A stretch of 64,000 nucleotides of DNA from Bacillota bacterium (GCA_012838305.1 DUPN01000092.1:5315-69314); one strand, 5' to 3'. Shown: positions 7,772-62,225, numbered from the stretch's first letter. Numbers and translations: made by a program. Notes: generated by a model not told the origin, from the letters alone.

Positions 7772-8350
7772 TTACCGATGCTCTCTTTGAGGCTGTGGCG
7801 GGAATGGAGGCCAAAACGCACCAGACTCAGCCAGCTCAAACCATTCTGCGCAGCCAATGGGAGACACCTGCTCACACTCTGGTGGCTCGGGTGCAAAGCG
7901 GCCCAGGACCTCCAACTGAACTAGGGCGATGGCTTTTATTACTAGGTAGATACCTACATCGCACTCAATGACGGTGCCTCCGTCAACAGCCCGACAAGAC
8001 AAGCAGCGGACCAGGGGTAGAATCACAACATTCATTCCTGGAATGGCACCCTCGAGACGGACGCCGCGACGACGGTATTGCGCGGTCTGTTGGATGAATT
8101 GACTCATTCCGTTGCTGTCATACTCCACATTCATTACGAAGTTGACAACGATGTCGATTTCGTCATTGCCCACAATGACACCTTCGGCCACAATATCGGT
8201 GATAGCACAATCAACAATATTGACCGCTAACGGGAAGGTGGGAGGAATGGGAATCCGGTAGGTGGGACAGTCAATAATGGAACACTCATTGTAGACCTTA
8301 TTGACATAAATAACCTCCCGTTGGAAATCGGGTTCATATTCACATTTCAT
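7772..8350 (-). CDS. hypothetical Cys-containing beta-rich protein (possible spore coat/exosporium-associated)
   Basis: 192 aa with a strong SD (AAGGAGGA, 6 nt) before the ATG at 8350. No signal peptide. Motifs CSIIDCPTY, VDCAITDIV and CLSCRAVDGGTVIEC. First gene of the operon with GT4 and darA. Confidence 0.5.
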   Translation of the reverse strand: MKCEYEPDFQREVIYVNKVYNECSIIDCPTYRIPIPPTFPLAVNIVDCAITDIVAEGVIVGNDEIDIVVNFVMNVEYDSNGMSQFIQQTAQYRRRGVRLEGAIPGMNVVILPLVRCLSCRAVDGGTVIECDVGIYLVIKAIALVQLEVLGRFAPEPPECEQVSPIGCAEWFELAESGAFWPPFPPQPQREHR

Positions 8351-8469
8351 GCTTAATCCTCCTTTCTCTTAATCATAGTATGCCGATCGTGCGGTGGGGT
8401 GCGTAGCCAACAGGAAAATGTCTGAATACCCTTCTGTTCGCATAACTTAGTTGTGAGGGAGGTGTGGCC

Positions 8470-9813
8470 TTGCGAATTAAGTTTAGGCATCCGAAATTCA
8501 GCCATGTTGAGCTGCGCGACGGTTCACTCGTGCTCCACTCTATGCAGGGGGAGGCTAGGGTGTTACAGGAGAATGTGGACGATGTCGCCGTGGCTGTGCA
8601 CAAGGAACTCGTGCGTATCGTGGGGTTTGTGGACAAAGCTTACGCCTGGCACTTCAGTGGTGAAGACGATCTGCAAGTCGAACGGATAGAATTTGGTCAG
8701 ACCTACGGAGGGGGCGGTCGCTTAATCCATGATGGACTGGGGAATAGTCACCTCTTCTATTTTGTCCAGCAGTCTCTGGGGCACGGTTCCCAGCTCAGGC
8801 ACCAAACCTTTAGCGAGAAGTGGTCGACGCCCCAGACAGTCTCCATCAACGTTTTCGGGGAGCCATCCAGCTTCAGCGCCAGCTGGTATACGGACCAATA
8901 TCTACACTTGGTATACTGCGGACACAAAGATCAGAATTTGCTGTATAGGGTATACAACCTGGAGCATCGGCTCTGGAGCGGCGCTGTGGTCTTTTCCGAG
9001 GAACGCTGCAGTTATCCCCAGTTCATTCCGGCCCCAGGGGGACTTTATCTTTTCTGGCAGGAGGATACTGCCAAGACTGTACTGAAGGTGCGCTACAAGA
9101 AACAACATTGGTCGCAGGAGGTTTTGGTATCCAGTGGGGAACGGCACGCTTCCAGTGTGGGTTACCGTTTGGCAGAGGACCGCTGGAGCGTACTGTGGGT
9201 TGAAGAAACCAAGTTCTATCAAGCGCCATTTGACGATTGGTCGAACCGCAACGAGGTGCAGCGAGGGGATTTCGACTATGCTTGGGTCGTTGAGGAGTCC
9301 CTGACGATTCCTGTCTATCAGTCCCAGGAGCCAGGGCCGGCGGTGGAGGAAAAAGCCCCAGAGGTACCCGAGCCTGGGGAGGAGGTGACAAGCGTTCCCG
9401 CCGCGGTAGGGACGGCCCCAGAGCGAAGTGAGAAGGAAGAAGAGGCTGCACAGAGGGAAAAGGCACAGAAAAAAAGGGAGAGTGAAGAAGCGAAGTTGCA
9501 GGCGGCCCTAATCGAGCAAGCCTTTCGCACTCTCCAGGAGTGGGAAAAAGTGAAGGAAGATCTAAAGCGCTGGCAAAGGGAGCTCAAACTCCCCGAACCT
9601 GTGGATCTGGTCCCTCTTATCGCTCGACTGGAAAGGTTAGAACGACGATGTTTGAATTTGCAGCAGAGTCAGGAGCAGACCAAGAAGCAAACAGAGGACA
9701 GCTTAGTCCAAATGGAACAGGCTCTAACGCGTTTGCGCGGGCAGCTTAGGGATTGGGAGGAGGAACGCAAAACAAAATACACACTCTGGGATAGGGTCCT
9801 GGGGCGAAGATAG
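8470..9813 (+). CDS. hypothetical protein: beta-rich repeat N-domain plus long E/K/Q-rich coiled-coil C-terminus
   Basis: 447 aa. Repeated hydrophobic-aromatic blade-like segments (LHLVYCG, LLYRVYN, LYLFWQE, WSVLWVE), then ~170 aa of coiled coil (EKEEEAAQREKAQKKRESEEAKLQ...). TTG 8470 preferred over track GTG 8464 on SD GAGGGAGG spacing. Confidence 0.55.
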   Translation: MRIKFRHPKFSHVELRDGSLVLHSMQGEARVLQENVDDVAVAVHKELVRIVGFVDKAYAWHFSGEDDLQVERIEFGQTYGGGGRLIHDGLGNSHLFYFVQQSLGHGSQLRHQTFSEKWSTPQTVSINVFGEPSSFSASWYTDQYLHLVYCGHKDQNLLYRVYNLEHRLWSGAVVFSEERCSYPQFIPAPGGLYLFWQEDTAKTVLKVRYKKQHWSQEVLVSSGERHASSVGYRLAEDRWSVLWVEETKFYQAPFDDWSNRNEVQRGDFDYAWVVEESLTIPVYQSQEPGPAVEEKAPEVPEPGEEVTSVPAAVGTAPERSEKEEEAAQREKAQKKRESEEAKLQAALIEQAFRTLQEWEKVKEDLKRWQRELKLPEPVDLVPLIARLERLERRCLNLQQSQEQTKKQTEDSLVQMEQALTRLRGQLRDWEEERKTKYTLWDRVLGRR

Positions 9814-15523: not shown

Positions 15524-16492
15524 ATGGATGGAAAGCTCTTTATCGGGATCGCAGACAATGATCGATTTGCTTCGGCTGTTGTGGGCGATGCTTGTGGTAA
15601 GATTATTGCCACCAGTGTAGGAGGCTCGGTAAACTATCACTATTGGGGGATTGAGCAGGCTCGAAAGAATCTACGAGATTTGATGACTCGAACCGTGGGG
15701 ACGGACTGGCGAAGGAGGCTGGCCGGGGCTTGTTTTACGTACAAGGCCGATTTTGCAGTTTCAAACTGGACAATGATCGACTTGGTCTCTGGACTCTTGG
15801 AGCTCAGCGACGTGACAGTGGAAGAGTTCGCCGCAAGCTCCATCATGGGTTTACACGGCAGCGGTGAACGACTGTTCTTGGTGGGTGGTCACTCTGGCTT
15901 AGCCATCTTTGAAGACGCCATGGGGAACACTAGGCAGATGAGGCAAGGGGCCCTTGTCTGGAGTCCTAGTCTTCGCTTGAATGCGAAACTTCATGATATG
16001 GGTGATCTCGGCCACCAGCAGGACGTGGAGAGTCTTTTGCATATGACCAAGCAAATCAGGCATGGAAGGTGCTTGGCTACGCTCACAAGTACCTTGGATG
16101 AGTGGGTGGATCAGGGAAGCACATTGGCCCTAGAAGTAGCCTATGATGTGGCCTTTGATCTAGTGCAAATGGTGACAAGCATGGCTGCCCATTTCTCCAG
16201 CGCCGACCCGGTTATTGGGCTCTACGGACAGGTCCTCCTGGGATCGCAGACAATTCGCGACCGAGTGGAGGATTTGATTGCTTTTCTATTTCCTCACTGC
16301 CAGGTGATGGAGGCACCCTTAGCTCCCGCCAAGGGCGCCTATCTTTCCTCCGTTCTGACAAGGAGATCGGGGTTTGAAGAAGAAGTGATCACCAACTTGT
16401 TTGCTTCAGACATCGATTTAGACACAGAAGGATGGTTACGTTATGGCACTGCTAACGCAAGCAATCGAAGCCACCATTACCCAGCGCTTTAG
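15524..16492 (+). CDS. BadF/BadG/BcrA/BcrD-type ATPase family protein (N-acetylglucosamine kinase-like fold) with degenerate phosphate-1 motif
   Basis: 322 aa with ASKHA-like fold signatures. The N-terminal motif is LFIGIADNDRFA instead of the GIDGGGTKT consensus. Confidence 0.55.
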   Translation: MDGKLFIGIADNDRFASAVVGDACGKIIATSVGGSVNYHYWGIEQARKNLRDLMTRTVGTDWRRRLAGACFTYKADFAVSNWTMIDLVSGLLELSDVTVEEFAASSIMGLHGSGERLFLVGGHSGLAIFEDAMGNTRQMRQGALVWSPSLRLNAKLHDMGDLGHQQDVESLLHMTKQIRHGRCLATLTSTLDEWVDQGSTLALEVAYDVAFDLVQMVTSMAAHFSSADPVIGLYGQVLLGSQTIRDRVEDLIAFLFPHCQVMEAPLAPAKGAYLSSVLTRRSGFEEEVITNLFASDIDLDTEGWLRYGTANASNRSHHYPAL

Positions 16493-19656: not shown

Positions 19657-19691
19657 AAAAGCCTCAAACATATTATCCGAGGAGTGATGGG

Positions 19692-21494
19692 ATGAAACAG
19701 CTTCAAAGACGAGAGGAGATAGCTCCTGATCTGAAATGGCGCCTGGAGGATATTTACCCGAGCGATCAGGAGTGGGAACAGGATCTGGCCAAATTGAAGG
19801 CGAGCAAACAGAGTGTACTGGATGTAAGGGGTACCCTTACATCGGGTGAGAATTTGCTCCGGGCTTTGCAGATTCAAGACGAGATAGGCTTGCTGGCGGA
19901 CCGCGTGATCGCCTATTCGCATATGCGTAAGGACGAAGATAACACGAATTCTCGGTACCAAGCTCATGCGGCCCAAGCCATGGCTGTCGCGGTCGAGCTT
20001 AGCGCCGCACGCTCCTTTTTCCTCCCTGAAATCCTGGCCCTCGATCCGGATCAGGTCAAGGGATGGATTCAGGAGACCCCTGGTCTTCAGGTTTACGCGC
20101 ATTATCTAGAAAACATCCTGCGCCTGCAGCCCCATACCCTCCCTGCGGAGCAGGAAGAGCTTCTGGCAGCGGCTGGGGAAATGGCGCAAGCGCCTGGCAA
20201 CATCTTTCGGATGTTCAACAACGCTGATCTCAAGTTCCCAGAGGTAAAAAATGATCATGGCGAAGTGGTGGAGTTAACCCATGGGCGCTATGGCCAGCTC
20301 CTCGAATCGCAGCAGCGTGAGGTTCGCAAGGGAGCCTTTGACGCCCTCTATGCGACGTACGCCTCTTGGAAGAACACCTTAGGAGCCACGTTTGTGGCCT
20401 CTGCAAAAAAGGAGCTATATTTTGCACGGGCACGCAAATACCGATCGTCTCTCGAGGCGGCCCTGTACGAAGATAATGTGGCCCCTGAGGTATACACGAA
20501 CCTGGTCAGCTCCATTCATGATCATCTGCCTCTGCTGCATCGCTATGTACGTTTGCGCAAGAAGCTGTTGGGTTTGGAAGAACTGCATATGTACGACCTC
20601 TATGTGCCCATGGTTGCGGATCAGGATATGGAGATACCACGCCAAGAAGCAGTAGGTATGGTTCAAACAGGTCTACATCACCTCGGTGCACAGTACCTAA
20701 GCGATCTGGACAAGAGTTTTACCGATGGCTGGATTGACTGGTTGGAGAACCGGGGGAAGACAAGTGGTGCCTATTCCTGGGGGACTTACGGCGTGCACCC
20801 CTATGTGCTTCTTAACTACCAAGAAACTCTCAACGACGTATTTACCTTGGCCCACGAACTCGGTCATGCCATGCACACCTTCTATTCCGACAAGAACCAG
20901 GAGTTCGTGAACGCGGGCTACACCATTTTCGTGGCTGAAGTGGCATCGACGCTCAATGAAGCGCTGCTCATGGATGATTTGCTCCGGAAGACGAAAGATC
21001 CGAAAAAACGGGCCTACCTTCTCAACCACTTTTTAGAACAGTATAGGGGGACCGTTTTCCGGCAGACCATGTTTGCTGAGTTTGAGATGATCGTCCACGG
21101 CAAAATCGGTGAAGGCGAATCTCTCACCAGTGAGGTCCTGTCCGAAATCTACTACGATTTGAACAAGAAATACTACGGAGAAGATATTGTTGTGGACGAA
21201 GCGATAGCCATGGAGTGGGCCAGAATCCCCCATTTCTACCGCCCATTTTATGTCTACAAGTATGCGACAGGGTTTTCCGCAGCCATATCGCTGTCGCAGC
21301 AGATTCTGAAAGAGGGAGAGCCGGCGGTCCAACGATACCTGGAGTTCCTCGGTGGCGGTGGTTCGGACTATCCCATCAATCTCTTGCAGAAGGCTGGCGT
21401 GGATATGAGTAGACCCGAACCCATCGTCCAGGCCATGGGACTTTTCGACGAGCTCTTAGGAGAACTTGAACAATTAGCCGCTACTGAGCTCTAG
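19692..21494 (+). CDS. pepF: oligoendopeptidase F (M3B family)
   Basis: 600 aa with HELGHAMH zinc motif and M3B-type N- and C-terminal regions. SD GAGGAG. Confidence 0.9.
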   Translation: MKQLQRREEIAPDLKWRLEDIYPSDQEWEQDLAKLKASKQSVLDVRGTLTSGENLLRALQIQDEIGLLADRVIAYSHMRKDEDNTNSRYQAHAAQAMAVAVELSAARSFFLPEILALDPDQVKGWIQETPGLQVYAHYLENILRLQPHTLPAEQEELLAAAGEMAQAPGNIFRMFNNADLKFPEVKNDHGEVVELTHGRYGQLLESQQREVRKGAFDALYATYASWKNTLGATFVASAKKELYFARARKYRSSLEAALYEDNVAPEVYTNLVSSIHDHLPLLHRYVRLRKKLLGLEELHMYDLYVPMVADQDMEIPRQEAVGMVQTGLHHLGAQYLSDLDKSFTDGWIDWLENRGKTSGAYSWGTYGVHPYVLLNYQETLNDVFTLAHELGHAMHTFYSDKNQEFVNAGYTIFVAEVASTLNEALLMDDLLRKTKDPKKRAYLLNHFLEQYRGTVFRQTMFAEFEMIVHGKIGEGESLTSEVLSEIYYDLNKKYYGEDIVVDEAIAMEWARIPHFYRPFYVYKYATGFSAAISLSQQILKEGEPAVQRYLEFLGGGGSDYPINLLQKAGVDMSRPEPIVQAMGLFDELLGELEQLAATEL

Positions 21495-22090
21495 AAGACG
21501 ATTTTCAAACCCAGACATTGCAGGGAGCCATCGACGGAATGGCTGTAACTAACTTGCCGCTGTTTGCCGCCTTTGGACGTGTGATGGATCTCGTAGCGGA
21601 GCAGAGCGTTTTTTGCATAATGGAGATGGGCCCCTAGGGCCCATCGTTCATTTACCGCAAAGACGAGCGAACCCTCCAGGGCGAATGTCTGCTTCTGCCA
21701 GGATAAGGCGCAGTTAAGGGCGATGGGATCGGAGAGCATTTGGACGCCGCCCTGCAGTTGTACTTGCTGTGGCTTGAGCTGGTATTCCAGCCTGATGGTG
21801 CTGGAGACCACATCATCCCAAGGTACCGACCAGGCCAGCGCAAGGCGGGGATACTGCAGTGTTAGGTCCCCTGTTTCCTGGCCGGAAGTGTATTGTATTG
21901 GCAAGGACACAAACGTCTGCACATGCTCATGGGGCGCGAGTTCGATACTGAGCTGGCTGAAATACACTTGGGTATCAGTATAAGGCGAGTTCCAGACTTG
22001 ACCTTCCAGAATCCAGGCGCCCTCGCACATACTGATACCCAGTATCAGTAAAGACAGAGTAAGTGTGAAGACTTTCAAGTGGTGTCTCAT
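21491..22090 (-). CDS. secreted beta-barrel-like protein (OmpW/8-10-strand OMP-like, C-terminal ...KIVF)
   Basis: Signal peptide MRHHLKVFTLTLSLLILGISMCEGA, alternating amphipathic beta-strand pattern, C-terminal aromatic residue F. Strong SD AAGGAGGG. Lies 12 nt downstream of the C39-like gene. Confidence 0.5.
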   Translation of the reverse strand: MRHHLKVFTLTLSLLILGISMCEGAWILEGQVWNSPYTDTQVYFSQLSIELAPHEHVQTFVSLPIQYTSGQETGDLTLQYPRLALAWSVPWDDVVSSTIRLEYQLKPQQVQLQGGVQMLSDPIALNCALSWQKQTFALEGSLVFAVNERWALGAHLHYAKNALLRYEIHHTSKGGKQRQVSYSHSVDGSLQCLGLKIVF

Positions 22091-22101
22091 GGGATCCCTC
22101 C

Positions 22102-22650
22102 TTAGAATTCAGCCACAGACTGCCTCAAGAGTCTGAGGCGGTTTGCTACTGAAGCTAGAATTTTCTCCACCGTTGAAAGAGCGTTTAGCTCCGGGAAATA
22201 AAGTATGTAGCCGCTAAAGTCTTCTAGGAAGGTATCTGGAGGTACTGCTCGCACCCCTGAGGCCGGATCTGCCACAACCAGCAGCTCTTCAATCAAACCT
22301 AGTAGGACCACGTAATGCCCTTGCTCCAAGTTCCGGTGGGCGAGGATGGGACGGTTGGGGAAGTAGGTGAAGAAATGGAGGAGCTGCTCCCAGTCGAGAT
22401 TGTACCCCACTACGGACCAGCCTCGCCCTTCTAGATATCGGCCCAGACCAGCCAGGGATATGCTGCCATCTCCCTCGGGGGCTGTGAGCCTTGGTTCCAC
22501 CTCTTGTCCGGCTAAGGTCAAGAGGGTGGCCGCAGCAGCCGCTCCACAGTCCCAGGGCGTTCTTTGACTGATCAGGCCGTGATACTTAGTGGTCTCATAA
22601 GGCTGAAGACCGGTCATCAAATGGAAGAATAGGACTAACCAGATACGCAT
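22102..22650 (-). CDS. peptidase C39-like domain protein (standalone, secreted/membrane-anchored)
   Basis: Hydrophobic N-terminus MRIWLVLFFHLMTG. Catalytic Cys context QRTPWDCGAAAAATLL and His context EQGHYVVLLG typical of the C39 bacteriocin-processing peptidase domain, with no ABC transporter fusion. ATG 22650 chosen over track 22722. Confidence 0.6.
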   Translation of the reverse strand: MRIWLVLFFHLMTGLQPYETTKYHGLISQRTPWDCGAAAAATLLTLAGQEVEPRLTAPEGDGSISLAGLGRYLEGRGWSVVGYNLDWEQLLHFFTYFPNRPILAHRNLEQGHYVVLLGLIEELLVVADPASGVRAVPPDTFLEDFSGYILYFPELNALSTVEKILASVANRLRLLRQSVAEF

Positions 22651-22913
22651 CAACTCCTTTCCTTCAGTGTAGAACGAACGCATTAAGTTGTCAATAGAAT
22701 TCAGAAAAGAAAGCAATATCAATGAAAATTTTAGAATGTATCAGATAGAATCTGTGAGGGAGGAGACTGCACAAACGTTGCGAATTACCCAATAATGGAA
22801 GAACAAACAAAGTGTGAAGGCAGGCTTCTGAAGTCGGTTATGCCTATGCGTGCAAGGGGGTGCTGAATAGGGAGTTTTCCTTAGTACAGCTGAAGCCTAA
22901 GGAGGAGATCGCT

Positions 22914-27538: not shown

Positions 27539-28717
27539 GTGGACTGGAAAGCACAGATTAGTGCAGCGATCGATGCAAAGCGAGCCCTGCTCGAAGAAAT
27601 AGCTCTGAGTATAGGCCAACATCCGGAGCTAGGTTTTCATGAGGTACACGCCTCTAGACTGCTGGCTGGAACATTGGAAAAAGAAGGGTTCCAGATCAAG
27701 CGGGGCATCGCCGGACTGGAAACAGCCTTTTCTGGCAGTTATGGTCGAGGTCGCCCCAATATTGCTCTGCTCTGCGAGTATGATGCCTTGCCGGAACTGG
27801 GTCATGCTTGCGGCCATAATCTCATTTCCGCAGCCAGTCTTGGCGCAGCTCTAGGCTTGGCCCCTTTCCTTGATCGTCTAGACGGCAGGGTGACTGTCTT
27901 GGGAACTCCTGCTGAAGAAACCGGGAGCGGCAAAGTGATTCTGGTAAAGGACGGCTTCTTCCAAGATGTGGACGCAGCTATGATGTTTCATCCTTCTGCG
28001 CGGAATTTGCTCATGGCCACCAGCAATGCACTTGATGCCTATGAGTTTGAGTTCAGCGGTAAGGCCGCCCATGCCGCCGACTCCCCTGAAGAGGGAATCA
28101 ACGCTTTGGACGGCGTGATCGCTCTTTTTGTGGGAATTAACGCCCTGCGGGAGCATTTGCCTGAAGGCGTACGTATACATGGTATTATCTCCGAAGGGGG
28201 AACAGCTCCCAACATTGTCCCTGATCGGGCAGTGGCCCGATTTTATATCCGCGCTCCCCGGCGTACCCAGCTCGATTGGGTCACCGCCAAAGTGCTCAAG
28301 GTGGCGGAGGGAGCAGCACTGATGACTGGCTCCAAGGTGGCTTGGCATGCGTTTGAACTGGGTACCGACAACATGATGCCCAGCGATTCTCTGTCCCTAG
28401 CCTTCGGGAGTAATCTGCAAAGGCTTGGGGTCACAGATATTGAAGAGTTCTGTGAAGGACGGGGTTCCTCTGACATGGGCAATGTGTCCAGGGTTGTCCC
28501 AGCCATTCACCCGTATTTAAGTATAGGTGATGGGCTGATCGCTCATACTGCGGAATTTGCCCAGGCTAGCCAGGGCCCGCAAGGCTTGCAGGTAGCTGTT
28601 CTAGCTGCAAAAGCCTTGGCCCACACTGCTGTTGATCTCCTTACCGATCCAAGTATCCTTGAGGCAGCCCGCAGGGAACATAGGAGACTTCTGAGCAAGG
28701 AGTCTGGTACCCTATGA
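27539..28717 (+). CDS. M20 family amidohydrolase/peptidase (M20D, AbgB/HipO-like)
   Basis: 392 aa with metal-binding HACGHN and typical M20D dimerisation-domain layout. GTG start with SD AGGAGTG. Confidence 0.85.
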   Translation: MDWKAQISAAIDAKRALLEEIALSIGQHPELGFHEVHASRLLAGTLEKEGFQIKRGIAGLETAFSGSYGRGRPNIALLCEYDALPELGHACGHNLISAASLGAALGLAPFLDRLDGRVTVLGTPAEETGSGKVILVKDGFFQDVDAAMMFHPSARNLLMATSNALDAYEFEFSGKAAHAADSPEEGINALDGVIALFVGINALREHLPEGVRIHGIISEGGTAPNIVPDRAVARFYIRAPRRTQLDWVTAKVLKVAEGAALMTGSKVAWHAFELGTDNMMPSDSLSLAFGSNLQRLGVTDIEEFCEGRGSSDMGNVSRVVPAIHPYLSIGDGLIAHTAEFAQASQGPQGLQVAVLAAKALAHTAVDLLTDPSILEAARREHRRLLSKESGTL

Positions 28718-30207
28718 ATCAACTTCGCCTTGCCCTAGCCCTGTTCTTTGTGATTCTCCTGCTAGCTGCTTCAGCAGGGGCCAATACCATTGGCATTGCC
28801 GGCGGTTGTGATCAGCCTTTGCCTTTGCCCGCTGATAAAATCTTGCGTATTTCCCCAACTTGGGTGGAGTTTGAGTACCACGGTTTTTTGCCCATTGGCG
28901 CTGATGTGGAAGTGTATCAGCACTGGGAGGACCAGGCCCTAAAAGTCCCCCTCGGAGCTGTGAAGGTGGGGTTTGAAGAAGTTGTGGCCACCATTCTCCA
29001 GGGAGAAGTGGTACGCTTTGATGTCTATGATCCCTTGTATATCCGCACGATGCGGGTGGCCATTAGTACTGCGCAGTTTCAGACCATCGAACACAAGACA
29101 TTGGTTTTTTCTCCTACTTCCAAATTGTACGTGGAAGAAACGGGTACGGGGCGCGGATTTCAGACGCCAGCCGATCATGAGGTTGCAGTTTCGGTGCGGG
29201 ATGGTAGGCTCTATGCGGTCGATGGAGAGGGACATGAATGGGAATTCGGTCAACGATTGTACGTCTGGGCCGATCCAGAAGGACTTATTCAGATCAATTC
29301 TTTCCAGCGGGGGGGAGGAACGCCGTTCTATCCTCGTTATCGAGGACGTTTCGAGCTCACTGTGGGAGATGGAGAGTATTTCTTGGCGATTAACGAGGTG
29401 AGCCTAGAAGAATATCTTTATCAGGTGGTCCCAAGCGAGATGCCCATTAGCTGGCCCTTGGAGGCACTGAAGGCTCAGGCAGTGGCTGCCCGCACATATG
29501 CTGTAGCCCAGGCTGTTTACTCCCGCCAAGGACACTTGGGGTTTCATGTCGCCGACAGCACCGACTCTCAAGTGTATAACAATTATCCCGAAGCCCACTC
29601 CACCACGGAGGCCATTGATCAAACGGCGGGGCAGATCTTAGTTCAATCGGACGGTACCATCGGTTCCACCTATTTTTATTCTACCTCTCCTGGAACCGCT
29701 GTCCTGGACCCAGCCGCCTGGAAGGATAGGACAGGCCTGGCCCTGGAAGGAAACTCACCCTGGTTTCGCTGGAAATGCGCGTTTACAGTTCAAGAGCTGG
29801 AAGGGCTGTTCCGGCTCGATGGGGTTTCGGACTTGTACGTTGAAGCAAGGGATGGGATCGGTAGGGTCACCAGCCTGGCTGTGGAGGGCCGAGGAGGGAC
29901 GCAGGTCATCCAGGGCGAGCTCAATATTCGCCGTGCCCTAAGGCCCGCAAGTCTGGAGAGGGTTGGTGACCAAATCGGTCCCCAATCCCTGTTACCCAGC
30001 GCCCTTTTCTTTCTCGAACTCGAGAGGGATCAGGGAGGCGGACTTCAAAGGGTAACCGTCTATGGCGGCGGCAGCGGCCATAATTTGGGAATGAGTCAGT
30101 GGGGCGCCAAGGGTATGGCGGAGAAAGGACATGATTTTTTGGACATTTTGAGTAAATACTATCCGGAAGCACATTTGATCACCCATTCTGAGCAGCTGAG
30201 GTATTGA
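28714..30207 (+). CDS. SpoIID/LytB domain-containing protein
   Basis: Signal peptide, then a C-terminal SpoIID/LytB domain (EEYLYQVVPSEMPISWPLEALKAQAVAARTYAV...). ATG overlaps the upstream stop (ATGA). Confidence 0.8.
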   Translation: MNQLRLALALFFVILLLAASAGANTIGIAGGCDQPLPLPADKILRISPTWVEFEYHGFLPIGADVEVYQHWEDQALKVPLGAVKVGFEEVVATILQGEVVRFDVYDPLYIRTMRVAISTAQFQTIEHKTLVFSPTSKLYVEETGTGRGFQTPADHEVAVSVRDGRLYAVDGEGHEWEFGQRLYVWADPEGLIQINSFQRGGGTPFYPRYRGRFELTVGDGEYFLAINEVSLEEYLYQVVPSEMPISWPLEALKAQAVAARTYAVAQAVYSRQGHLGFHVADSTDSQVYNNYPEAHSTTEAIDQTAGQILVQSDGTIGSTYFYSTSPGTAVLDPAAWKDRTGLALEGNSPWFRWKCAFTVQELEGLFRLDGVSDLYVEARDGIGRVTSLAVEGRGGTQVIQGELNIRRALRPASLERVGDQIGPQSLLPSALFFLELERDQGGGLQRVTVYGGGSGHNLGMSQWGAKGMAEKGHDFLDILSKYYPEAHLITHSEQLRY

Positions 30208-45242: not shown

Positions 45243-45266
45243 AAAAAGGCCCCCGCAAGGGAGGCC
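45243..45266 (-). terminator. intrinsic terminator of the ABC exporter operon
   Basis: Minus strand GGCCTCCC-TTGC-GGGGGCC followed by TTTTTCC, starting at the TAG stop of the exporter gene. Confidence 0.75.
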
Positions 45267-47041
45267 TAGCCCTCTAGAAACTGGTTGGTATACAGGCGGT
45301 AATAGTATCCCTTGGCAGCCATCAATTGGCTATGGCTGCCCTTTTCTTCGACCTTTCCGCCACGAATGACGAGAATACGATCGGCAGAACGTACCGTGGA
45401 CAAGCGGTGGGCGATGATGAAGCTGGTTCGCCCCTTCAAGACCGTCTGAATGGCGTCTTGAATGAGCATTTCTGTTTCGGTATCGATGGATGAGGTGGCC
45501 TCATCCAGCACGAAAATGCTGGGATTAGCCAAAATCGCCCGGGCAAAGGAGATCAGCTGTTTCTGGCCCGTGGATAGCAGGCCGCCTCCTTCGCCCACCT
45601 CCGTATCGTAACCCTTAGGCAATTTCGTGATGAACTCGTGGGCGTTCACCATCTTGGCCGCCTCTTCCACCTCCGCGTCGGATGCCTGTAGTCTCCCATA
45701 ACGGATATTCTCTCTGATGCTTCCAGAGAAGAGATGAGGACTCTGCAGGACATAGCCCAAGTGGCTCTGCAGCCAGGAGAGGGGCCTCTCCCGGTAATCC
45801 ACACCATCGATGAGTACCCGTCCTTTAGTGGGTTCGTAGAAGCGGCAGGCAAGGTTGACAATAGTGCTCTTGCCAGAGCCCGTTTCGCCCACTAAGGCTA
45901 CGGTCTGCCCCGGTTCAACCTTCAGGTTAAAATCCGTGAGGACCGGCTCTTGAGGATTATAGGCGAAGGAGACGTTTTCGAATTCAATGGCACCTACAAG
46001 AGGTGGGCAGTTCCGGCCAAGTCCAGGTTGATCCTTTATCTCGGGTTCTGTGTTCAGCAAGCCCATGACCCTTTCGGCAGAGGCATGGGCCATCTGCAGC
46101 TCCGCAAAGATCCTGGCGATTTCCCTCACTGGTTCAAAGAACTGCACCGTATAGGAGACAAAGGCCACAAAGACCCCGTAGGAGATGGTTCCTGCCACGA
46201 CTCCATCACCCCCAACCCACAAAGTGAGACTGGTTCCAATGCTTCCCAACACAAGGACGATGGGTAGAAACAGCGCAGAAAAGGTGGCCGCTCGAATACT
46301 CGAGGCTCTCAGCCCCGAGGTGAGAGTCTGGAATTCCTCCAAATTCCGATCTTCTCTGCTCAGAATTTTGGTGGTTGTAGCCCCTATGATCCCTTCGTTG
46401 AAAGAACCCGTAATCTTGGAGTTGACGCGGCGCACATCCCGGTAGGATCGTAAGATCCTGCGCTGAAAATAGACGCTGGCTACCGCCAGGATGGGTAGGA
46501 TGCAGACTGTCAAAAGGGCCAATCGCCAGTTCATGCTAAACATTACAATGGAATAGAACAACATGGCCACGCCGCCCCACAAAAGATCGACTAGGCCCCA
46601 GCCCACAACGTCGCCTAGACGGTTCACATCACTGGTGAGCCGGGCCAATAGCCATCCTACCGCTCTTTTGTCATAGAACGAAAAGGACAGCTCATGGAGG
46701 TGCTCGAAGCCCGCCTGACGGATTGCGTAAGTGAGCGAGGTTTCTACCTTGCCCGCCATGTTAATAAAGAGGTAGACACTGGCACTTTGGTACAGCACCA
46801 AGAGCAGGAACGCCCCGGCGAACCAAATGAGCCCGTCGGTGTTTTGGGGAACCACAAAGCGGTCGACTGCAATTTTTGTCATGTAGGGAAAGAGGGCATC
46901 CCCTGCGGCCAGGGCCACTGACCCCAACATAGCGAAGAGAATGTAGCGCCTGTAGGGCTTTGCCAATTGCAGGATTTGCCGCCATAGTCTAACATCAATC
47001 TTCTCTTCGTGAATTTCTTCTTGCATCATTACCTGTTGCAT
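45266..47041 (-). CDS. ABC transporter ATP-binding protein/permease (type I exporter half-transporter, heterodimer partner B)
   Basis: 591 aa, 6 TM + NBD with Walker A GETGSGKST, signature LSTGQKQL, Walker B ILVLDEATS. SD AAGGTGA. Confidence 0.9.
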   Translation of the reverse strand: MQQVMMQEEIHEEKIDVRLWRQILQLAKPYRRYILFAMLGSVALAAGDALFPYMTKIAVDRFVVPQNTDGLIWFAGAFLLLVLYQSASVYLFINMAGKVETSLTYAIRQAGFEHLHELSFSFYDKRAVGWLLARLTSDVNRLGDVVGWGLVDLLWGGVAMLFYSIVMFSMNWRLALLTVCILPILAVASVYFQRRILRSYRDVRRVNSKITGSFNEGIIGATTTKILSREDRNLEEFQTLTSGLRASSIRAATFSALFLPIVLVLGSIGTSLTLWVGGDGVVAGTISYGVFVAFVSYTVQFFEPVREIARIFAELQMAHASAERVMGLLNTEPEIKDQPGLGRNCPPLVGAIEFENVSFAYNPQEPVLTDFNLKVEPGQTVALVGETGSGKSTIVNLACRFYEPTKGRVLIDGVDYRERPLSWLQSHLGYVLQSPHLFSGSIRENIRYGRLQASDAEVEEAAKMVNAHEFITKLPKGYDTEVGEGGGLLSTGQKQLISFARAILANPSIFVLDEATSSIDTETEMLIQDAIQTVLKGRTSFIIAHRLSTVRSADRILVIRGGKVEEKGSHSQLMAAKGYYYRLYTNQFLEG

Positions 47042-47053
47042 AGGATCACCTTT

Positions 47054-48829
47054 TTAAGCCTTAGCTTCGGCTTCAAGCGTATTTTGGATATCCCAAATGG
47101 TGCGATACTGCCCAGGGGCAGCCATCAGTTCCTGATGGGTGCCGCGTTGCACGATTCTGCCGTGGTCCAGCACCAAGATCAGATCCGCCCTGGCCAGGCT
47201 GGTTACTCGATGGGAGATCAGGAATGTGGTGGCCTTGCGGCCTCGTTTTTCTAGAGCATTGCGAATGGCTAGGTCCGTTTCAGTATCGACTGCACTTAAG
47301 GAATCGTCGAAAATCAAGATTGGACTGTGGGTGATGAGCGCTCTGGCGATGGCGATTCTCTGACGCTGTCCGCCAGAAACCGAGACTCCACGTTCACCCA
47401 CAAGGGTTTCATAACCCTGATCAAAGCCTTGGATCACGTCATGGATTGCTGCTTCTTTGCAGATGGCATAGAGCTCTTCGTCCGGCACGTCGCCACTGGC
47501 CAAGGTGACATTTTCCCGAATCGTCTTGGCAAACAAAAATGGTTCTTGTGGAACGACAGCTACATGCTGGCGAATCCACCTCTTGTCGATGGTGTTGAGC
47601 TCCACTCCATCCACCTTGATGGAGCCTGATGCATATTCGTAGAGACGGGCCAAAAGGTGGACCAAGGAACTCTTGCCTGAACCCGTGTGTCCTAAAAGGG
47701 CGATAGTCTGCCCTGCTTCCGCCGTGAAACTCAGGTTTTCTAGGACCAACTGGTCAGGCTCATAGCCAAAAGAGACGTTTTCAAATACGATGTTCCCCTC
47801 AATCGGGGGCCGCAAGAAGTTTTCCTGCAGCTTTTCTCTGGGTTGGTTAAAAACCTCCTGGAGCCGCTCTGCGGCGACCAAGGCTTTCCCCGTGTCCGTG
47901 AGGATACGACCGAGTTGGCGGACAGGCCAAACCAGCATCCCAACATACGTGCCAAAGAGCACCATGGTACCGATGGTGATCTCCCCTCGGGCTGTGAAAT
48001 AGGCGCCGAAAACGAAGACGGAACCGATTTGAAGAAAGGCGATCAGATCACTGGCAGACCAGTAACAAGCCAAAAGCCAGATCAGATGGTGGACTTTGTC
48101 GCGGTTCCTCTGATTTTTTGCGTCAAAGCGGTCAATCTCGTAGCTCTGATTAGCGAAGGCCCGCACTACCCGAATTCCGCTAAGGTTCTCCTGGAGCACC
48201 GTGGTGAGTTCTGCCTCCGCTTCGTCCGCTTCCCGAAAGGCCTTTTTTACCTTGAGGAAAAAGACGACAGCGAAGACGAAAATGACAGGTATGGCCATCA
48301 TGGACAGCAGTGTCATGCGTAAATCTGACCGAAACATAATCGTCGTAATGAAAATCACCATGGAGAGTGAACTGCCCACTTCCACCAGCTGTGCACCGAG
48401 GAATCTGCGAATCGTGTCCACATCGGAGGTGCATCGTTGCATAAGATCCCCAGTATCAACCTCTTTGTGATACTTGTAAGGGAGGTGTTGGATGTGGTCA
48501 TAGATCCGGTCGCGGATGTTCTTAGCAATATTTTCGCTGGCTTGGGCTGCAAGTCTGCCCCTGAGAAACATAAAAATTCCCCGGAATGTAGTGATGACAA
48601 TCAACACAATCCCGGGGATCCAGAACGCTTGACCTATGTTCTCCACAAAGGTGCGTATCAATAGCGGCGCTGCGAGCGGCTCGCTTCCAATAACCGAGTC
48701 GATGGTAATACGAATCACCAAAGGTCCGGCCACGGCCGTCAAGCTAGCTAGCCCCACTGAGAGGAGGGCCCCAAGATATAACAGTCGATTATGTGCCATA
48801 TAATGCCACAAGATGCGTACGGATTTCAT
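47054..48829 (-). CDS. ABC transporter ATP-binding protein/permease (type I exporter half-transporter, heterodimer partner A)
   Basis: 591 aa, 6 TM + NBD with Walker A GHTGSGKSS, signature VSGGQRQR, Walker B ILIFDDSLS. SD AAAGGAGG at 8 nt. Lies 12 nt upstream of its partner. Confidence 0.9.
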   Translation of the reverse strand: MKSVRILWHYMAHNRLLYLGALLSVGLASLTAVAGPLVIRITIDSVIGSEPLAAPLLIRTFVENIGQAFWIPGIVLIVITTFRGIFMFLRGRLAAQASENIAKNIRDRIYDHIQHLPYKYHKEVDTGDLMQRCTSDVDTIRRFLGAQLVEVGSSLSMVIFITTIMFRSDLRMTLLSMMAIPVIFVFAVVFFLKVKKAFREADEAEAELTTVLQENLSGIRVVRAFANQSYEIDRFDAKNQRNRDKVHHLIWLLACYWSASDLIAFLQIGSVFVFGAYFTARGEITIGTMVLFGTYVGMLVWPVRQLGRILTDTGKALVAAERLQEVFNQPREKLQENFLRPPIEGNIVFENVSFGYEPDQLVLENLSFTAEAGQTIALLGHTGSGKSSLVHLLARLYEYASGSIKVDGVELNTIDKRWIRQHVAVVPQEPFLFAKTIRENVTLASGDVPDEELYAICKEAAIHDVIQGFDQGYETLVGERGVSVSGGQRQRIAIARALITHSPILIFDDSLSAVDTETDLAIRNALEKRGRKATTFLISHRVTSLARADLILVLDHGRIVQRGTHQELMAAPGQYRTIWDIQNTLEAEAKA

Positions 48830-51849: not shown

Positions 51850-53631
51850 ATGACGAAGCTAGACCAAAGATGGGATCTTGAGACCATCTTTCCTGAAGGG
51901 AGTTCCTCCCCCCAGCTGCACCAGCAGCTGGACAGGGTGAGGGCGGAAATCGCCGGGTTAAGACAGAAGGTGAAGGTACTTACCCCGGATCTACCGGTGG
52001 ATGAGTTCCGGGCGCTAATCCAAGACATGCAGGATCTGCAGGCAAATCTAGGACAGTGCAGAGCGTTTATCAGCTGCTTGACGGCACAAGATGTACGGGA
52101 CAGTCAAGCGCGGGTGCTGCAGGGCGATTTCGGACAAATCAGCGCATCATTGGCCGGAGTGTTCACCGCCATCGATCACATTTTTGTGGAGATCCCTGAG
52201 GAAAGATGGCAAGCGTTTCTGGATGATGATGGGCTTCAGGAACTACGTTTTTCCCTCAATGAGAGGCGTAATGTGGCTAGGACAAAGATGCCACCAGAGT
52301 TGGAGTCTCTTGTAACGGATTTAGAGGTCGATGGCTATCACGCCTGGTCCCATTTGTACTATACTATCGTTGGCGAAATGTCCATCGAAATGCAGCGGGA
52401 TGGAGAAATACAGACATTGTCCATGGGCCAAGCGGCCAACCTTCTATCGGACCCTGATCCCAAGGTGCGGCATGAGGTTTTCTGCAAGTATGAGGACGCC
52501 TGGACCAAGAATGAAGAGCTTTTTGCTAGTACCTTGAATCATCTAGCCGGTTTTCGCATTAACCTCTACCGCAATCGCAATTGGGATGATGTGCTCTATG
52601 AGCCCCTGCAGCGAAATCGCATGGAGCGAGCCACGCTCGAGGCCATGTGGGCGGCGGTAAACGGCGGGAAACCCTATCTAGCTCAGTATTTGCAGAGAAA
52701 AGCCGAACTCTTGGGCCTGGATCAGATCGCTTGGTATGACCTAGGGGCCCCCGTGGGCGAAGCGGGAGGGGAGATCCCCTTTGCAGATGCAAAAACCTTT
52801 GTGGTGGACCAGCTTCGCAAATTCAGCCCAGCCATGGCCGACTTTACGCTGCATGCTTTGGAAAAACGCTGGGTTGAGGCGGAAAATAGAGGAGGAAAGC
52901 GTCCTGGCGCATTTTGTACCTCGTTTCCCCTCAGCGGCGAGTCTAGGGTCTTTATGACCTATTCCGGCACGATTAGCAGCCTAGGCACCTTGGCCCATGA
53001 GCTCGGACACGCCTACCATGGTCATCTGCTGAAGGATGCTCCCATCTTTTTGCGCCGGTATGCCATGAATGTAGCCGAAACCGCTTCCACCTTCAGTGAA
53101 CTGCTCGTCGTGGACGGGGCGATCAGGGCCGCGGCCAGTCCTGGCGAGAGACTCGGCATTTTGGACGATAAGATTGGGCGTAGTGTCGCCTTCTTCATGG
53201 ACATCCATTCTCGCTTTTTGTTCGAAACGCGCTTTTATGAAGCAAGGAAGAGAGGCATGGTCAGCGCAGCGCAGCTAAACGAGCTAATGACCCAGGCACA
53301 AAGGGATGCTTTCCTAGGAAGCCTGAAGGAGTACCATCCCCATTTCTGGGCGTCGAAGCTGCACTTCTACTCGACTGGAATGCCTTTTTACAACTTCCCC
53401 TATACCTTTGGATACCTCTTTAGTGCGGGGGTGTATGCCAAGGCTAAGGAAGTAGGTCCCAGCTTCGCCCAGAGTTATGCAGAGCTTTTGAGGGACACGG
53501 CGAAAATGTCCGTGGAAGGCCTGGCGCAAAAGCACTTGGGTGTGGATCTGACTAAGACTGCATTTTGGGAAGCCGCAGTCAGATTGGCCACCGATGATGT
53601 TGAGGAGTTCTTACAGCTAACACAAGAATAA
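51850..53631 (+). CDS. M3B family oligoendopeptidase (second PepF-like paralog)
   Basis: 593 aa with HELGHAYH zinc motif. SD GAGGAGG. Confidence 0.9.
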   Translation: MTKLDQRWDLETIFPEGSSSPQLHQQLDRVRAEIAGLRQKVKVLTPDLPVDEFRALIQDMQDLQANLGQCRAFISCLTAQDVRDSQARVLQGDFGQISASLAGVFTAIDHIFVEIPEERWQAFLDDDGLQELRFSLNERRNVARTKMPPELESLVTDLEVDGYHAWSHLYYTIVGEMSIEMQRDGEIQTLSMGQAANLLSDPDPKVRHEVFCKYEDAWTKNEELFASTLNHLAGFRINLYRNRNWDDVLYEPLQRNRMERATLEAMWAAVNGGKPYLAQYLQRKAELLGLDQIAWYDLGAPVGEAGGEIPFADAKTFVVDQLRKFSPAMADFTLHALEKRWVEAENRGGKRPGAFCTSFPLSGESRVFMTYSGTISSLGTLAHELGHAYHGHLLKDAPIFLRRYAMNVAETASTFSELLVVDGAIRAAASPGERLGILDDKIGRSVAFFMDIHSRFLFETRFYEARKRGMVSAAQLNELMTQAQRDAFLGSLKEYHPHFWASKLHFYSTGMPFYNFPYTFGYLFSAGVYAKAKEVGPSFAQSYAELLRDTAKMSVEGLAQKHLGVDLTKTAFWEAAVRLATDDVEEFLQLTQE

Positions 53632-61556: not shown

Positions 61557-62225
61557 TTGGTAGACTTGGCGCGACAAGCAGGTTTTGCCGAACTGTACGG
61601 TTTAGTGGAGGAGCTGCACTTCAGGCGGCAAAACCAGAGATGCTGCTTAAAAGACTATGGACTCCAGGCCCAGTTGAAAACCCTCATTCATCTCATTCAC
61701 AGGTATGGCGATCGCCAGGTGCGAGAGGGCAAACCGGACCAACGGATTTTGTCAGACCTAAAGAAGGCTAGCACCCACCTCAATCAAATTGAGCCCCGTG
61801 GTTTGCTCAAGAGGGTGCCCTCTACCCTGCATGTCTCGTGGCCTGAACTATTGACTGCCTTTGGCCTTGTTGTGGGCGAACAGCGTCTCTGGTCGTCTCT
61901 GGGATCTAGACTCAGGCCTTTGGAAAACTATCTGCAAATGCAGCGGTTCCTGTACTTTTTGTTTACTCGCCGCCTACTTCGGAGCCCTGAAGAGCAGAGG
62001 TACAAGCATGTCCTAGAAGAATGGGAACTCGATCAGCTTGGACAGGACCGTCGTGGTCTTAGCGACTGGACCAAGCGTGTACCGCTGCTTCCTCTGCAGT
62101 CGCAGAAGCTGCTCCTCTCTCCGGAGTTACTGTATGACGATTTGCTTGTGAAATACATAGAACTGGCATTGTTCTCGGAAAACCTGCAAACAACAGGACA
62201 TCTGTATGTAGCGGAGCAGCGTTAA
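61557..62225 (+). CDS. hypothetical protein
   Basis: 222 aa ORF with TTG start, no detectable domain, helical and Arg/Leu-rich. Start is uncertain. Confidence 0.4.
   Translation: MVDLARQAGFAELYGLVEELHFRRQNQRCCLKDYGLQAQLKTLIHLIHRYGDRQVREGKPDQRILSDLKKASTHLNQIEPRGLLKRVPSTLHVSWPELLTAFGLVVGEQRLWSSLGSRLRPLENYLQMQRFLYFLFTRRLLRSPEEQRYKHVLEEWELDQLGQDRRGLSDWTKRVPLLPLQSQKLLLSPELLYDDLLVKYIELALFSENLQTTGHLYVAEQR

Follow-up and report, generated by a model that had tools for sequence, protein, structure and literature searches.

Which role could a standalone C39 cysteine peptidase gene have when its only partner gene encodes a beta-barrel protein, and when every other gene nearby would suit an ordinary sporulating Firmicute? 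We addressed this question for two adjoining genes on the minus strand of a 64-kb stretch of DNA (64,000 nt, hereafter the window), by analyzing gene structure, family membership, predicted folds and conservation in related genomes. We consider it very likely that the pair consists of a C39 peptidase and a 12-stranded outer-membrane barrel encoded in one operon; what the two proteins do together can be stated only with much less confidence.

Gene structure and the two proteins

The C39 ORF (182 aa) and the barrel ORF (21491–22090, 199 aa) are arranged as follows, listed in the direction of their transcription.

22666–22694, minus strand: candidate sigma-70-like promoter of the two-gene operon (TTGACA-17-TACACT, 10/12 matches), called by consensus match alone
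22654–22662, minus strand: Shine-Dalgarno (SD) site GGAAAGGAG of the C39 gene, read from the sequence
22102–22650, minus strand: standalone C39 cysteine peptidase gene, 182 aa (Pfam PF03412, PDB profile, AF2, Foldseek)
22546–22548 and 22315–22317, minus strand: codons of the C39 catalytic residues Cys35 and His112
C39 protein, residues 1–14: hydrophobic segment, putative short signal peptide or anchor
C39 protein, residues 15–25: linker modeled at low confidence
C39 protein, residues 29–151: C39 core
C39 protein, residues 159–181: extra C-terminal amphipathic helix; the protein ends in Phe
22096–22103, minus strand: SD site AAGGAGGG of the barrel gene, overlapping the TAA stop of the C39 gene
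22019–22090, minus strand: barrel signal peptide, residues 1–24, MRHHLKVFTLTLSLLILGISMCEG, followed by AW (n-region, h-region and cleavage-site features)
21491–22018, minus strand: mature 12-stranded transmembrane beta-barrel as predicted, ~175 aa, plus the stop codon
21625–21655, plus strand: GC-rich hairpin and U-rich tract, 131 nt downstream of the stop of the convergent pepF gene

A TTG at 22722 would open a longer C39 ORF (206 aa), but translation almost certainly begins at the ATG at 22650 (182 aa, MRIWLV...), because the GGAAAGGAG SD site precedes it, the promoter-like site sits within the longer ORF, and homologues begin similarly. The promoter candidate, the one promoter-like site upstream of the two-gene unit, lies directly 5' of the SD site and the ATG. 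In the C39 homologues, the start codon is found 1–3 residues ahead of IWLxLFF, and an in-frame 'K-E' (AAGGAG) stands at the equivalent place just 5' of it. The gap from the C39 stop to the barrel start is 11 nt, not 12 nt as initially given, and the overlap of the barrel SD site with the C39 stop codon suggests that the two genes are translationally coupled. In every related locus this distance stays between −4 and +30 nt. Judged from conservation, both genes are genuine rather than chance ORFs, since homologues at 27–92% identity occur in 13 species-level genomes and hundreds of metagenome contigs.

According to profile searches and structure prediction, the upstream protein has a papain-like C39 fold with an intact Gln/Cys/His/Asp active site. 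Pfam PF03412, which nearly all lineage homologues carry, matched residues 27–152 at 47.6 bits (cut-off 22, E=1.9e-12), and a PDB-sequence profile search returned LahT150 (E=1.8e-11), ComA and PCAT1 with the catalytic residues in register. In the profile alignment, Q29, C35, H112 and D128 fall on Q11, C17, H96 and D112 of ComA, the Cys/His dyad being retained as the Cys35/C17 and His112/H96 pairs. Gln29, Cys35 and His112 are invariant among 24 C39 sequences; Asp128 is conserved to at least 90%, four members having Asn instead. The AF2 model (pLDDT 83.7) matched ComA-PEP, LahT150 and PCAT1 in Foldseek with a probability of 1.00 and E ~1e-6. The original prediction of a C39-only protein that has a hydrophobic N-terminus and keeps its Cys and His was thus borne out, and the motifs cited for it, QRTPWDCGAAAAATLL and EQGHYVVLLG, are both present. 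Foldseek also matched CdiA-CT and a papain-like toxin/immunity pair; a toxin reading was rejected because there is no immunity-like partner, the gene is conserved and present as a single chromosomal copy, and the matches reflect the common papain fold.

The C39 domains of PCAT/AMS exporters (ComA, PCAT1, LahT) share with this protein the Pfam family, the fold, the Gln/Cys/His/Asp constellation and its spacing. In contrast to them, the window protein is standalone, has a hydrophobic N-terminus and an extra C-terminal helix, and comes with neither a transporter domain nor an adjoining ABC gene. Membership among PCAT/AMS exporters was rejected on this ground: the 182-aa protein ends after the C39 core and one helix, and the gene downstream of it encodes the beta-barrel.

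The 199-aa protein is predicted to be a closed 12-stranded transmembrane beta-barrel and not a soluble sandwich. This prediction draws on the AF2 model (pLDDT 86), on a Foldseek search in which FapF structures took ranks 1–13, and on the strand-face pattern, one face being hydrophobic with aromatic girdles and the opposite one polar. As originally proposed, the protein carries a classical signal peptide (positive n-region, 13-residue h-region, small residues at −3 and −1), which AF2 places as a helix outside the barrel, and the mature barrel opens directly with beta-strand 1 (residues 23–34). Across the barrel family the signal peptide varies in sequence, and the AxA-type site followed by the invariant Trp26 is conserved. 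A lipoprotein reading was rejected, because several members have Ala, Ser or Arg in place of Cys22 and a lipobox is missing. The loops are very short on both faces, and the polar lumen is lined by Gln, His, Glu and Arg. The C-terminal LGLKIVF noted earlier was found as described; it contains a beta-signal-like motif, G194-L-K-I-V-F199, and G-[LF]-K-x-x-[FL] ends 23 of 24 family members. Together, the signal peptide, the amphipathic strands with aromatic girdles and the C-terminal beta-signal are the generic traits of a bacterial outer-membrane barrel. The narrower assignment to 8-stranded OmpW/OmpA-like barrels fails, the protein having neither eight strands nor the signatures of those families.

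No known family claimed the barrel. Searches with 24 members against Pfam gave only noise (DUF6850, E=0.023; Porin_3, E=0.013 in 5/24 members), NCBIfam gave no match at E≤1 and PDB sequence profiles gave none. The family is also very small, with 19 representatives among 1.84 billion proteins. KdgM and NanC, monomeric 12-stranded porins, are sugar-acid channels and are encoded with catabolic genes rather than with a peptidase. The window barrel shows no sequence similarity to them (no significant Pfam match for any of the 24 members and no PDB sequence match), and its extracellular loops are even shorter. The 199-aa protein founds a new family, very small in membership, of 12-stranded outer-membrane barrels close to the minimal size.

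Host lineage and conservation of the pair

The lineage is the class Limnochordia, order DTU010 ('Ca. Darwinibacteriales', MBA03), as assigned from relatives: L020 is UBA3914 (GTDB: DTU010 sp002391385, class Limnochordia), and L021 is recorded as 'Limnochordia bacterium'. Limnochordia have been reported to be diderm, based on TEM of isolates and on outer-membrane marker genes in 46/46 UBA genomes analysed. From the taxonomy of the relatives and this literature, we infer that the host, an uncultured organism, is diderm, and an outer-membrane barrel is thus expected. The original prediction had called such a barrel unexpected in a sporulating Firmicute unless the lineage were diderm, a proviso that fits the Limnochordia literature. 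A monoderm host, in which the 199-aa protein would be a secreted soluble or lipid-binding beta-barrel, is extremely improbable. It would agree with the annotated window genes, all of which fit an ordinary sporulating Firmicute (SleB-like, SpoIID), and with the lack of outer-membrane markers (BamA, OmpM, LPS genes) within the 64 kb; furthermore, strand-face alternation alone cannot say which face is outward.

Very few outer-membrane proteins of diderm Firmicutes have been characterised, the literature that we retrieved covering OmpM and the Mla system in Veillonella and, for Limnochordia, mainly genome analysis and a few recent isolates; the barrel family belongs to a bacterial group that ranks among the most abundant in anaerobic digesters.

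In 12 of the 13 species genomes, even where barrel identity falls to 27%, the C39 gene immediately precedes the barrel gene on the same strand. In the thirteenth, the pair was deleted as a unit, a single ~1.07-kb deletion in UBA5493 (L025) having removed both genes. This co-conservation upholds the earlier description of a compact two-gene unit. In the window, the pair is flanked by an RpiR-like regulator gene and by pepF. The gene upstream of the pair differs between loci, and pepF is convergent with the barrel gene and overlaps its stop in 16/16 loci. Because the whole neighborhood is syntenic, with pepF adjoining throughout, adjacency is weaker evidence of coupling between peptidase and barrel than it appears.

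In another reading, the barrel is a small diffusion channel of the KdgM/NanC/COG4313 type, for oligosaccharides or hydrophobic compounds, while the C39 protein has an unrelated envelope role and the pair is kept by operon inheritance alone. We regard it as rather unlikely. Besides the absence of a sequence match between the barrel and KdgM or any other porin family, the pair persists in L005, L011, L023 and L024, where the RpiR/GH94 genes are not upstream, and the constant short spacing, the SD-stop overlap and the joint loss in L025 favor a functional unit.

The constant presence of pepF could be taken as a functional link. Here the channel would admit oligopeptides, the C39 protein would trim them in the periplasm, and cytoplasmic PepF would complete their degradation. 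However, C39 peptidases are specific leader peptidases and not general nutritional proteases, pepF lies on the opposite strand with its own probable terminator, and universal synteny accounts for its adjacency. Peptide scavenging is therefore very improbable, even though DTU010 organisms have been described as versatile sugar and amino-acid fermenters with highly expressed peptide transporters (PMC10608942).

Kinship to Fap and Fil and possible function

Outside the lineage, profile comparison places the nearest relatives of the C39 protein among exported FapD/FilB-like peptidases that are clustered with FapF-like barrels. The C39 family profile scored ~118–134 bits on standalone proteobacterial C39 peptidases of ~225 aa with clear Sec signals and only 31–47 bits on PCAT, ComA and LahT domains. 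These proteobacterial peptidases match FapD (E=2.6e-39) and FilB, and their gene clusters also hold FapF/FilC-like barrels (E=5e-40 to 3e-48). The pairing is thus less unprecedented than had been implied: a standalone exported C39 peptidase with a 12-stranded barrel is known in Fap (FapD/FapF) and annotated in Fil (FilB/FilC).

The kinship stops short of family identity. On the window C39 protein, the FapD equivalog model NF058616 gave 23.9 bits against a cut-off of 330 with only residues 20–47 aligned, and the FilB model gave 17.3 bits against a cut-off of 475 (E=0.0023, residues 15–174); the proteobacterial relatives, at 135–142 bits, are likewise under the FapD cut-off. The window barrel shares the 12-stranded outer-membrane fold with FapF but differs from it in several respects: First, at ~175 aa it has no N-terminal periplasmic coiled coil, linker or plug helix. 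Second, no sequence-level relationship was found (no match to FapF NF058560 or any other NCBIfam model at E≤1, hhalign against three FapF-like outer-membrane proteins at a probability of 5%, and no PDB profile match). Third, the FapD-type operon contains amyloid subunit genes with fapF, whereas here there are no fapA/B/C/E-like genes and the sole partner gene is the barrel. At last, the targeting segment of the window C39 protein is atypically short compared with FapD, and the Fap host is a proteobacterium (Pseudomonas) while the window host is a Firmicute. The Fil system of Acinetobacter (NF050078/NF050079) similarly pairs a standalone C39 peptidase, named 'putative pilus system C39 family peptidase' in NCBIfam, with a FapF-type barrel, and the FilC model matches FapF-like barrels too. 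In the window, there is no FilA-like pilin gene and the barrel has no FilC match. The roles of FilB and FilC stand at annotation level, and our literature search turned up no experimental study of them.

In Fap, FapD is periplasmic, and secretion through FapF is abolished in the FapD C38A mutant (PMC5557850). By analogy, we tentatively favor a minimal Fap-like module, in which a peptidase in the periplasm and a channel in the outer membrane would act on a substrate whose gene lies elsewhere. The barrel protein would be exported by Sec, lose its 24-residue signal peptide and be steered into the outer membrane by its G-L-K-I-V-F motif, there to form a minimal, almost loop-free barrel of 12 strands and ~175 residues with a polar lumen. 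The C39 peptidase, of the double-glycine type and catalytically competent as judged by sequence, would be sent to the periplasmic side by its short hydrophobic N-terminus. It may then cut a leader or pro-segment off an unfolded Sec-exported substrate, as in FapD/FapF (for FilB/FilC, by annotation only), and the barrel may pass the processed substrate or peptide across the outer membrane. The periplasmic location, the coupling of the two proteins, and the existence and nature of the substrate are all presumed in this scheme. A motif scan of the short ORFs of the 64-kb window found no double-glycine leader, and neither such an ORF nor a Gln/Asn/Gly-rich secreted protein was found beside the pair or elsewhere in the window. 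Intergenic ORFs of 21–39 aa are unconvincing as substrates, and the unannotated proteins at 8464–9813, 7772–8350, 15524–16492 and 61557–62225 have no signal peptide and no repeat character.

The N-terminus of the peptidase is the most delicate part of this scheme. Its hydrophobic stretch of ~13 residues has a small residue at −1 before LQPY and little or no positive n-region. Since the stretch is short, and since most homologues lack a positive n-region and conserve the segment unusually well for a signal peptide, export of the C39 protein is only putative. The peptidase could instead be a split-off PCAT domain, tethered by its N-terminal helix at the cytoplasmic face and trimming double-glycine leaders for an unlinked ABC exporter, with the barrel as exit duct in the outer membrane. 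In its favor, C39 domains classically reside in the cytoplasm, the window protein scores about as well with the NCBIfam PCAT models as with the FapD model, and the window encodes two ABC exporters of 591 aa, both lacking a C39 domain, at 45266–48829. Nevertheless, this arrangement is decidedly unlikely: ~13 hydrophobic residues are too few for a transmembrane helix, the closest out-of-lineage relatives are Sec-exported standalone peptidases and not PCAT domains, and the ABC genes lie 23 kb away and are of the ordinary exporter type, with no double-glycine peptide gene found.

Alternatively, the barrel could have the peptidase as its own cargo or partner, as in a split autotransporter or a plug supplied in trans, helix 159–181 or the N-terminal helix docking in the barrel and anchoring or displaying the C39 domain at the outer membrane. 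In type Va autotransporters (NalP, BrkA, Hbp, AIDA-I, EstA), passenger and barrel form one polypeptide, whereas here there are two genes, of which the first encodes the protease with an N-terminal targeting segment of its own, and the barrel has no PF03797 match. A trans autotransporter with a 12-stranded barrel has no precedent, the C-terminal helix may owe its high pLDDT simply to packing on the C39 core, and the conservation of barrel residues N147–H155 is confounded by an embedded pepF terminator (see below). We consider the cargo reading quite improbable.

Compared with the Fap-like module, a bolder proposal is that the pair forms a self-sufficient two-gene secretion or display device of diderm Firmicutes, either as a stripped-down Fap/Fil core working on unlinked substrates or as a 'trans-autotransporter' that holds the C-terminal helix of the peptidase in the plug-less barrel and displays the protease on the surface. 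It is unlikely; if true, it would represent a new minimal secretion architecture and the first outer-membrane pore dedicated to protein translocation to be described in Limnochordia. Under the Fap-like reading, the pairing with an exported-type C39 peptidase would carry the Fap/Fil theme, a leader peptidase acting outside the cytoplasm beside a 12-stranded channel, past the Proteobacteria and down to two genes. Should the pair act as a unit, it would offer a simple model for the cooperation of a C39 peptidase with a barrel, which is unsettled even for FapD/FapF, the target of FapD being still unknown (PMC5557850).

The hairpin within the barrel gene

The plus-strand hairpin at 21625–21655 (delta-G −27.9 kcal/mol, z = −6.0) sits in barrel codons N147–H155 (NERWALGAH), which are among the most conserved codons of the barrel gene. 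It probably serves as the intrinsic terminator of pepF, and hence is an element of the neighboring gene that nevertheless constrains the barrel gene. The Ala codons in the stem are GCC in 15/15 loci, whereas all four Ala codons occur at the invariant Ala145, and the hairpin is kept in the deletion remnant of L025. The embedded terminator would thus be a clear case in which protein-level and RNA-level constraints act on one coding motif.

The C39-barrel operon and its conservation

The pair of neighboring minus-strand genes in the original prediction, one for a C39 peptidase and the other for a barrel protein, was confirmed, its interpretation was borne out in part, and the features of the region were located as follows.

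Features of the C39-barrel operon and its convergent neighbor
22694-22666, minus strand: promoter-like site TTGACA-17-TACACT, within an alternative, longer TTG-started ORF
22654-22662, minus strand: SD site of the C39 gene, GGAAAGGAG, read from the sequence
22650 (ATG) to 22102-22104 (TAA), minus strand: C39 gene, 182 aa, with the preferred start
22096-22103, minus strand: SD site of the barrel gene, AAGGAGGG, overlapping the C39 stop codon
22090 to 21491, minus strand: barrel gene, 199 aa, starting 11 nt past the C39 stop codon
21625-21645 (with a U-rich tract to 21655), pepF sense: terminator-like GC-rich hairpin, 131 nt past the pepF stop
19692-21494, convergent to the barrel gene: pepF (oligoendopeptidase F)

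In all C39 homologues, the conserved IWLxLFF at the N-terminus is preceded by only one to three residues. Since the SD site of the barrel gene overlaps the C39 stop codon, the two genes very probably share a transcript and are coupled in translation, judging from their sequence. At the other end, the TAG stop of the barrel gene and that of the convergent pepF overlap in the palindrome CTAG.

The proposed co-conservation of the pair held when relatives were compared. In every metagenome locus examined and in 12 of 13 species loci, the barrel gene is immediately preceded on its own strand by the C39 gene, with a spacing of -4 to +30 nt, and this arrangement is kept down to 27% barrel identity. 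The upstream neighbor differs among loci, being an RpiR regulator with a GH94 phosphorylase, a 5'-3' exonuclease, or a GKRP-type SIS protein. In UBA5493 (L025:7779-8230), one deletion of ~1.07 kb eliminated C39 entirely, together with the 5' two-thirds of the barrel gene; the region is free of Ns, and a frameshifted 3' remnant of the barrel gene (~180 nt) begins just before the hairpin. This single event indicates that the module is not essential and that its two genes went together. On the other side, the adjacent gene is a convergent pepF in 16 of 16 loci and the whole region is syntenic in the lineage, so the adjacency of C39 and barrel is weaker evidence for coupling than it appears. With PepF so constant a neighbor, yet convergent to the pair, we also considered a peptide-scavenging unit formed by the pair together with PepF, and regard it as highly improbable.

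Two further observations concern pepF itself. The window holds two oligoendopeptidase F (Peptidase_M3) paralogues, at 19692-21494 (600 aa) and 51850-53631 (593 aa). In relatives (L008:8531-10681 and L016:10420-12693), a gene of 716-757 aa, whose product is an FtsA/PilM-like ATPase fused to ThiS/TGS/Ub-Mut7C-like domains, stands between pepF and a PdaC/DUF3298 gene; it is absent from the window (19657-19691) and identical contigs, which leaves pepF right next to the PdaC-like gene there.

The barrel protein and the hairpin within its gene

The N-terminus of the barrel protein is a typical Sec signal peptide, with a positive n-region, a 13-residue h-region and an AxA-type site followed by the invariant Trp26, and its sequence is variable within the family. 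The AF2 model (pLDDT 86, pTM 0.74) is an up-and-down meander with 12 predicted strands; DSSP assigns 13 segments, one of which belongs to a strand kinked at Pro81. The predicted fold is thus a closed barrel, and the soluble sandwich that would have refuted the original prediction was not obtained; the label 'OmpW/OmpA-like' given to it was wrong because the barrel has 12 strands. Across 24 family members, the strands have a hydrophobic face with Trp/Tyr at the ends and an opposite face that is polar or small and rich in Gln/Glu/His/Ser/Gly/Arg, the pattern of a membrane barrel whose lumen is filled with water. In 23 of the 24, the protein ends in G-[LF]-K-x-x-[FL], presumably an OMP beta-signal. 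According to the model, the mature protein (~175 residues) is close to the minimum size for 12 strands; its loops are very short at either face, and it lacks a plug. In the Foldseek search with this model, ranks 1-13 were all FapF chains (E=1.6e-8, TM 0.64-0.71) and KdgM ranked behind them. A KdgM-like solute porin, with which the peptidase would have no connection, is an unlikely reading.

The barrel constitutes a new family: it has no sequence match in Pfam, NCBIfam or the PDB, NCBI annotates the protein as hypothetical, and only 19 members emerged when 1.84 billion representative proteins were searched exhaustively by HMM. It diverges much faster than its C39 partner and the flanking genes. 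Between the window and UBA3914 (L020:7405-8594), which have a common gene order, amino-acid identity is 39% for the barrel, 68% for C39 and 65-77% for the flanking genes. The divergence is concentrated in the N-terminal two-thirds of the barrel, and residues 119-199 are conserved.

The conserved part includes the hairpin, which covers the codons of the most conserved motif of the barrel, N147-E-R-W-A-L-G-A-H155 (NERWALGAH). Read in the pepF sense, it folds with -27.9 kcal/mol (z=-6.0), and the U-rich tract comes after it. Its stem is maintained in the DNA of all 15 distinct loci, synonymous sites included: Ala151 and Ala154 in the stem are GCC in 15 of 15, but all four Ala codons occur at Ala145, an invariant residue five codons away, and the Leu codon of the loop varies freely. 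The hairpin also lies in the barrel remnant that survived the deletion in UBA5493. It is probably the intrinsic terminator of pepF, lodged in the coding sequence of a convergent gene; in that case, part of what looks like the strongest 'protein' conservation in the barrel is a constraint at the RNA level.

The C39 peptidase and its relatives

The C39 protein matches Pfam PF03412 with 47.6 bits (cut-off 22), and among solved structures a profile of 23 family members found LahT150 (6mpz, E=1.8e-11), the ComA peptidase domain and PCAT1. Gln29, Cys35, His112 and Asp128 are in register with Gln11, Cys17, His96 and Asp112 of ComA; the first three are invariant across the family, and Asn replaces Asp128 in four members. 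The AF2 model (pLDDT 83.7) likewise matched the ComA, LahT150 and PCAT1 peptidase domains in Foldseek.

Two additions to the C39 core were found. First, hydrophobic residues 2-14 at the N-terminus are followed by a low-confidence linker. It may be a signal peptide, although a very short one, and the residue at -1, ahead of LQPY, is small. Because this segment is short, mostly without a positive n-region and unusually conserved, export of the protein is no more than likely. The same features would suit a peptidase on the cytoplasmic face, for which the barrel would be the outer-membrane exit; considering the exported relatives described below, we find this quite unlikely. Second, a conserved amphipathic helix spans residues 159-181 and the protein terminates at Phe182. 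Through this extra helix the peptidase might serve as a plug or in a trans-autotransporter arrangement with the barrel, whose model contains no plug of its own; such an arrangement is very unlikely.

The best matches of the family profile outside the lineage (118-134 bits) were standalone C39 peptidases of ~225 aa from Burkholderiales genera and other Proteobacteria, named here as in the source records; the PCAT, ComA and LahT domains reached only 31-47 bits against the same profile. These proteobacterial peptidases have clear Sec signal peptides, align over their full length to the window protein, and have in common with it the motif [YF]-x-G-x(3)-Q-x(3)-[WF]-x-C-G and a C-terminal tail ending in Phe.

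We analyzed four of their loci (L029-L032), which represent three distinct clusters (L029:5059-9606, L031:3027-8193 and L032:3518-8337), two of them on metagenome contigs. The clusters encode Gly/Asn/Ala-rich secreted repeat proteins of 370-492 aa, small secreted proteins with a common Q/N-rich C-terminal motif '...VIQN(T/S)GANVLIQ...', and a Sec-exported C39 peptidase ending in GPGDF. Each locus also encodes an OMP of 430-467 aa whose N-terminal coiled coil is followed by a C-terminal barrel, and a sigma-54 activator is present in two of the three clusters (L031, L032). Under NCBIfam models, the peptidase resembles FapD (E=2.6e-39) and FilB, and the OMP resembles FapF over its full length (E=5e-40 to 3e-48) and also FilC. 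These scores are significant, yet all are far below the equivalog cut-offs, so these Fap/Fil-like clusters may be an undescribed sister system. They make an exported standalone C39 peptidase beside a FapF-type barrel a recurring arrangement, and the window peptidase falls in that standalone branch. The pairing, originally presented as a module with no assigned function, has precedents in Fap and, at annotation level, in Fil.

A possible Fap-like role and the host envelope

We are highly confident of the anatomy, namely a C39 peptidase and a 12-stranded outer-membrane barrel encoded in one operon. Functional coupling of the two as a minimal Fap-like module is the reading with the best support, but a tentative one, drawn by analogy. 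In Fap, secretion through FapF depends on the catalytic Cys of FapD, a periplasmic protein (PMC5557850). By comparison, the window barrel would be inserted in the outer membrane and the C39 peptidase would act on the periplasmic side, cleaving a substrate encoded elsewhere; the substrate or its product would then cross the outer membrane via the barrel. No substrate gene was found adjoining the pair or elsewhere in the window, and the window barrel has no sequence-profile relationship with the FapF-like OMPs of the proteobacterial loci (hhalign probability 5%).

Both exact sequences recur in metagenomes, on contigs numbering in the hundreds (220 blocks of the collection index the barrel by itself), and a contig of 2.9 Mb labelled 'Bacillota bacterium' has them as well; NCBI lists the barrel as HHT91196.1, MDI9421973.1 and MGI6626129.1. 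The family is carried by 13 species-representative genomes. UBA3914 is DTU010 sp002391385 of the class Limnochordia in GTDB (PMC10608942), and another relative (L021) is named 'Limnochordia bacterium'. The order DTU010 corresponds to MBA03 or 'Ca. Darwinibacteriales', one of the dominant groups in anaerobic digesters (PMC12663870). Limnochordia have been reported among three diderm Firmicute clades. The original prediction called an outer-membrane barrel unexpected here unless the lineage is diderm, and that clause fits both the taxonomy of the relatives and the literature on Limnochordia. The window also carries sporulation-associated genes, a SleB-like Hydrolase_2 plus LysM protein and SpoIID (872-1684 and 28714-30207). 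Their presence in a lineage from a class reported as diderm fits Limnochordia being spore formers with an outer membrane, and an outer-membrane barrel alongside SpoIID/SleB-like genes is thus expected and not paradoxical. No BamA, OmpM or LPS genes lie within the 64-kb window. A monoderm host with a soluble barrel is exceedingly improbable.

Elsewhere in the window, the plus-strand ORF 8464-9813 (449 aa) has no Pfam match. Low complexity is absent from its first ~300 residues; the C-terminal third is rich in Glu/Lys/Gln, highly charged and resembles a coiled coil. The exact protein with the given start was found on only one short contig, so its GTG start may be wrong.
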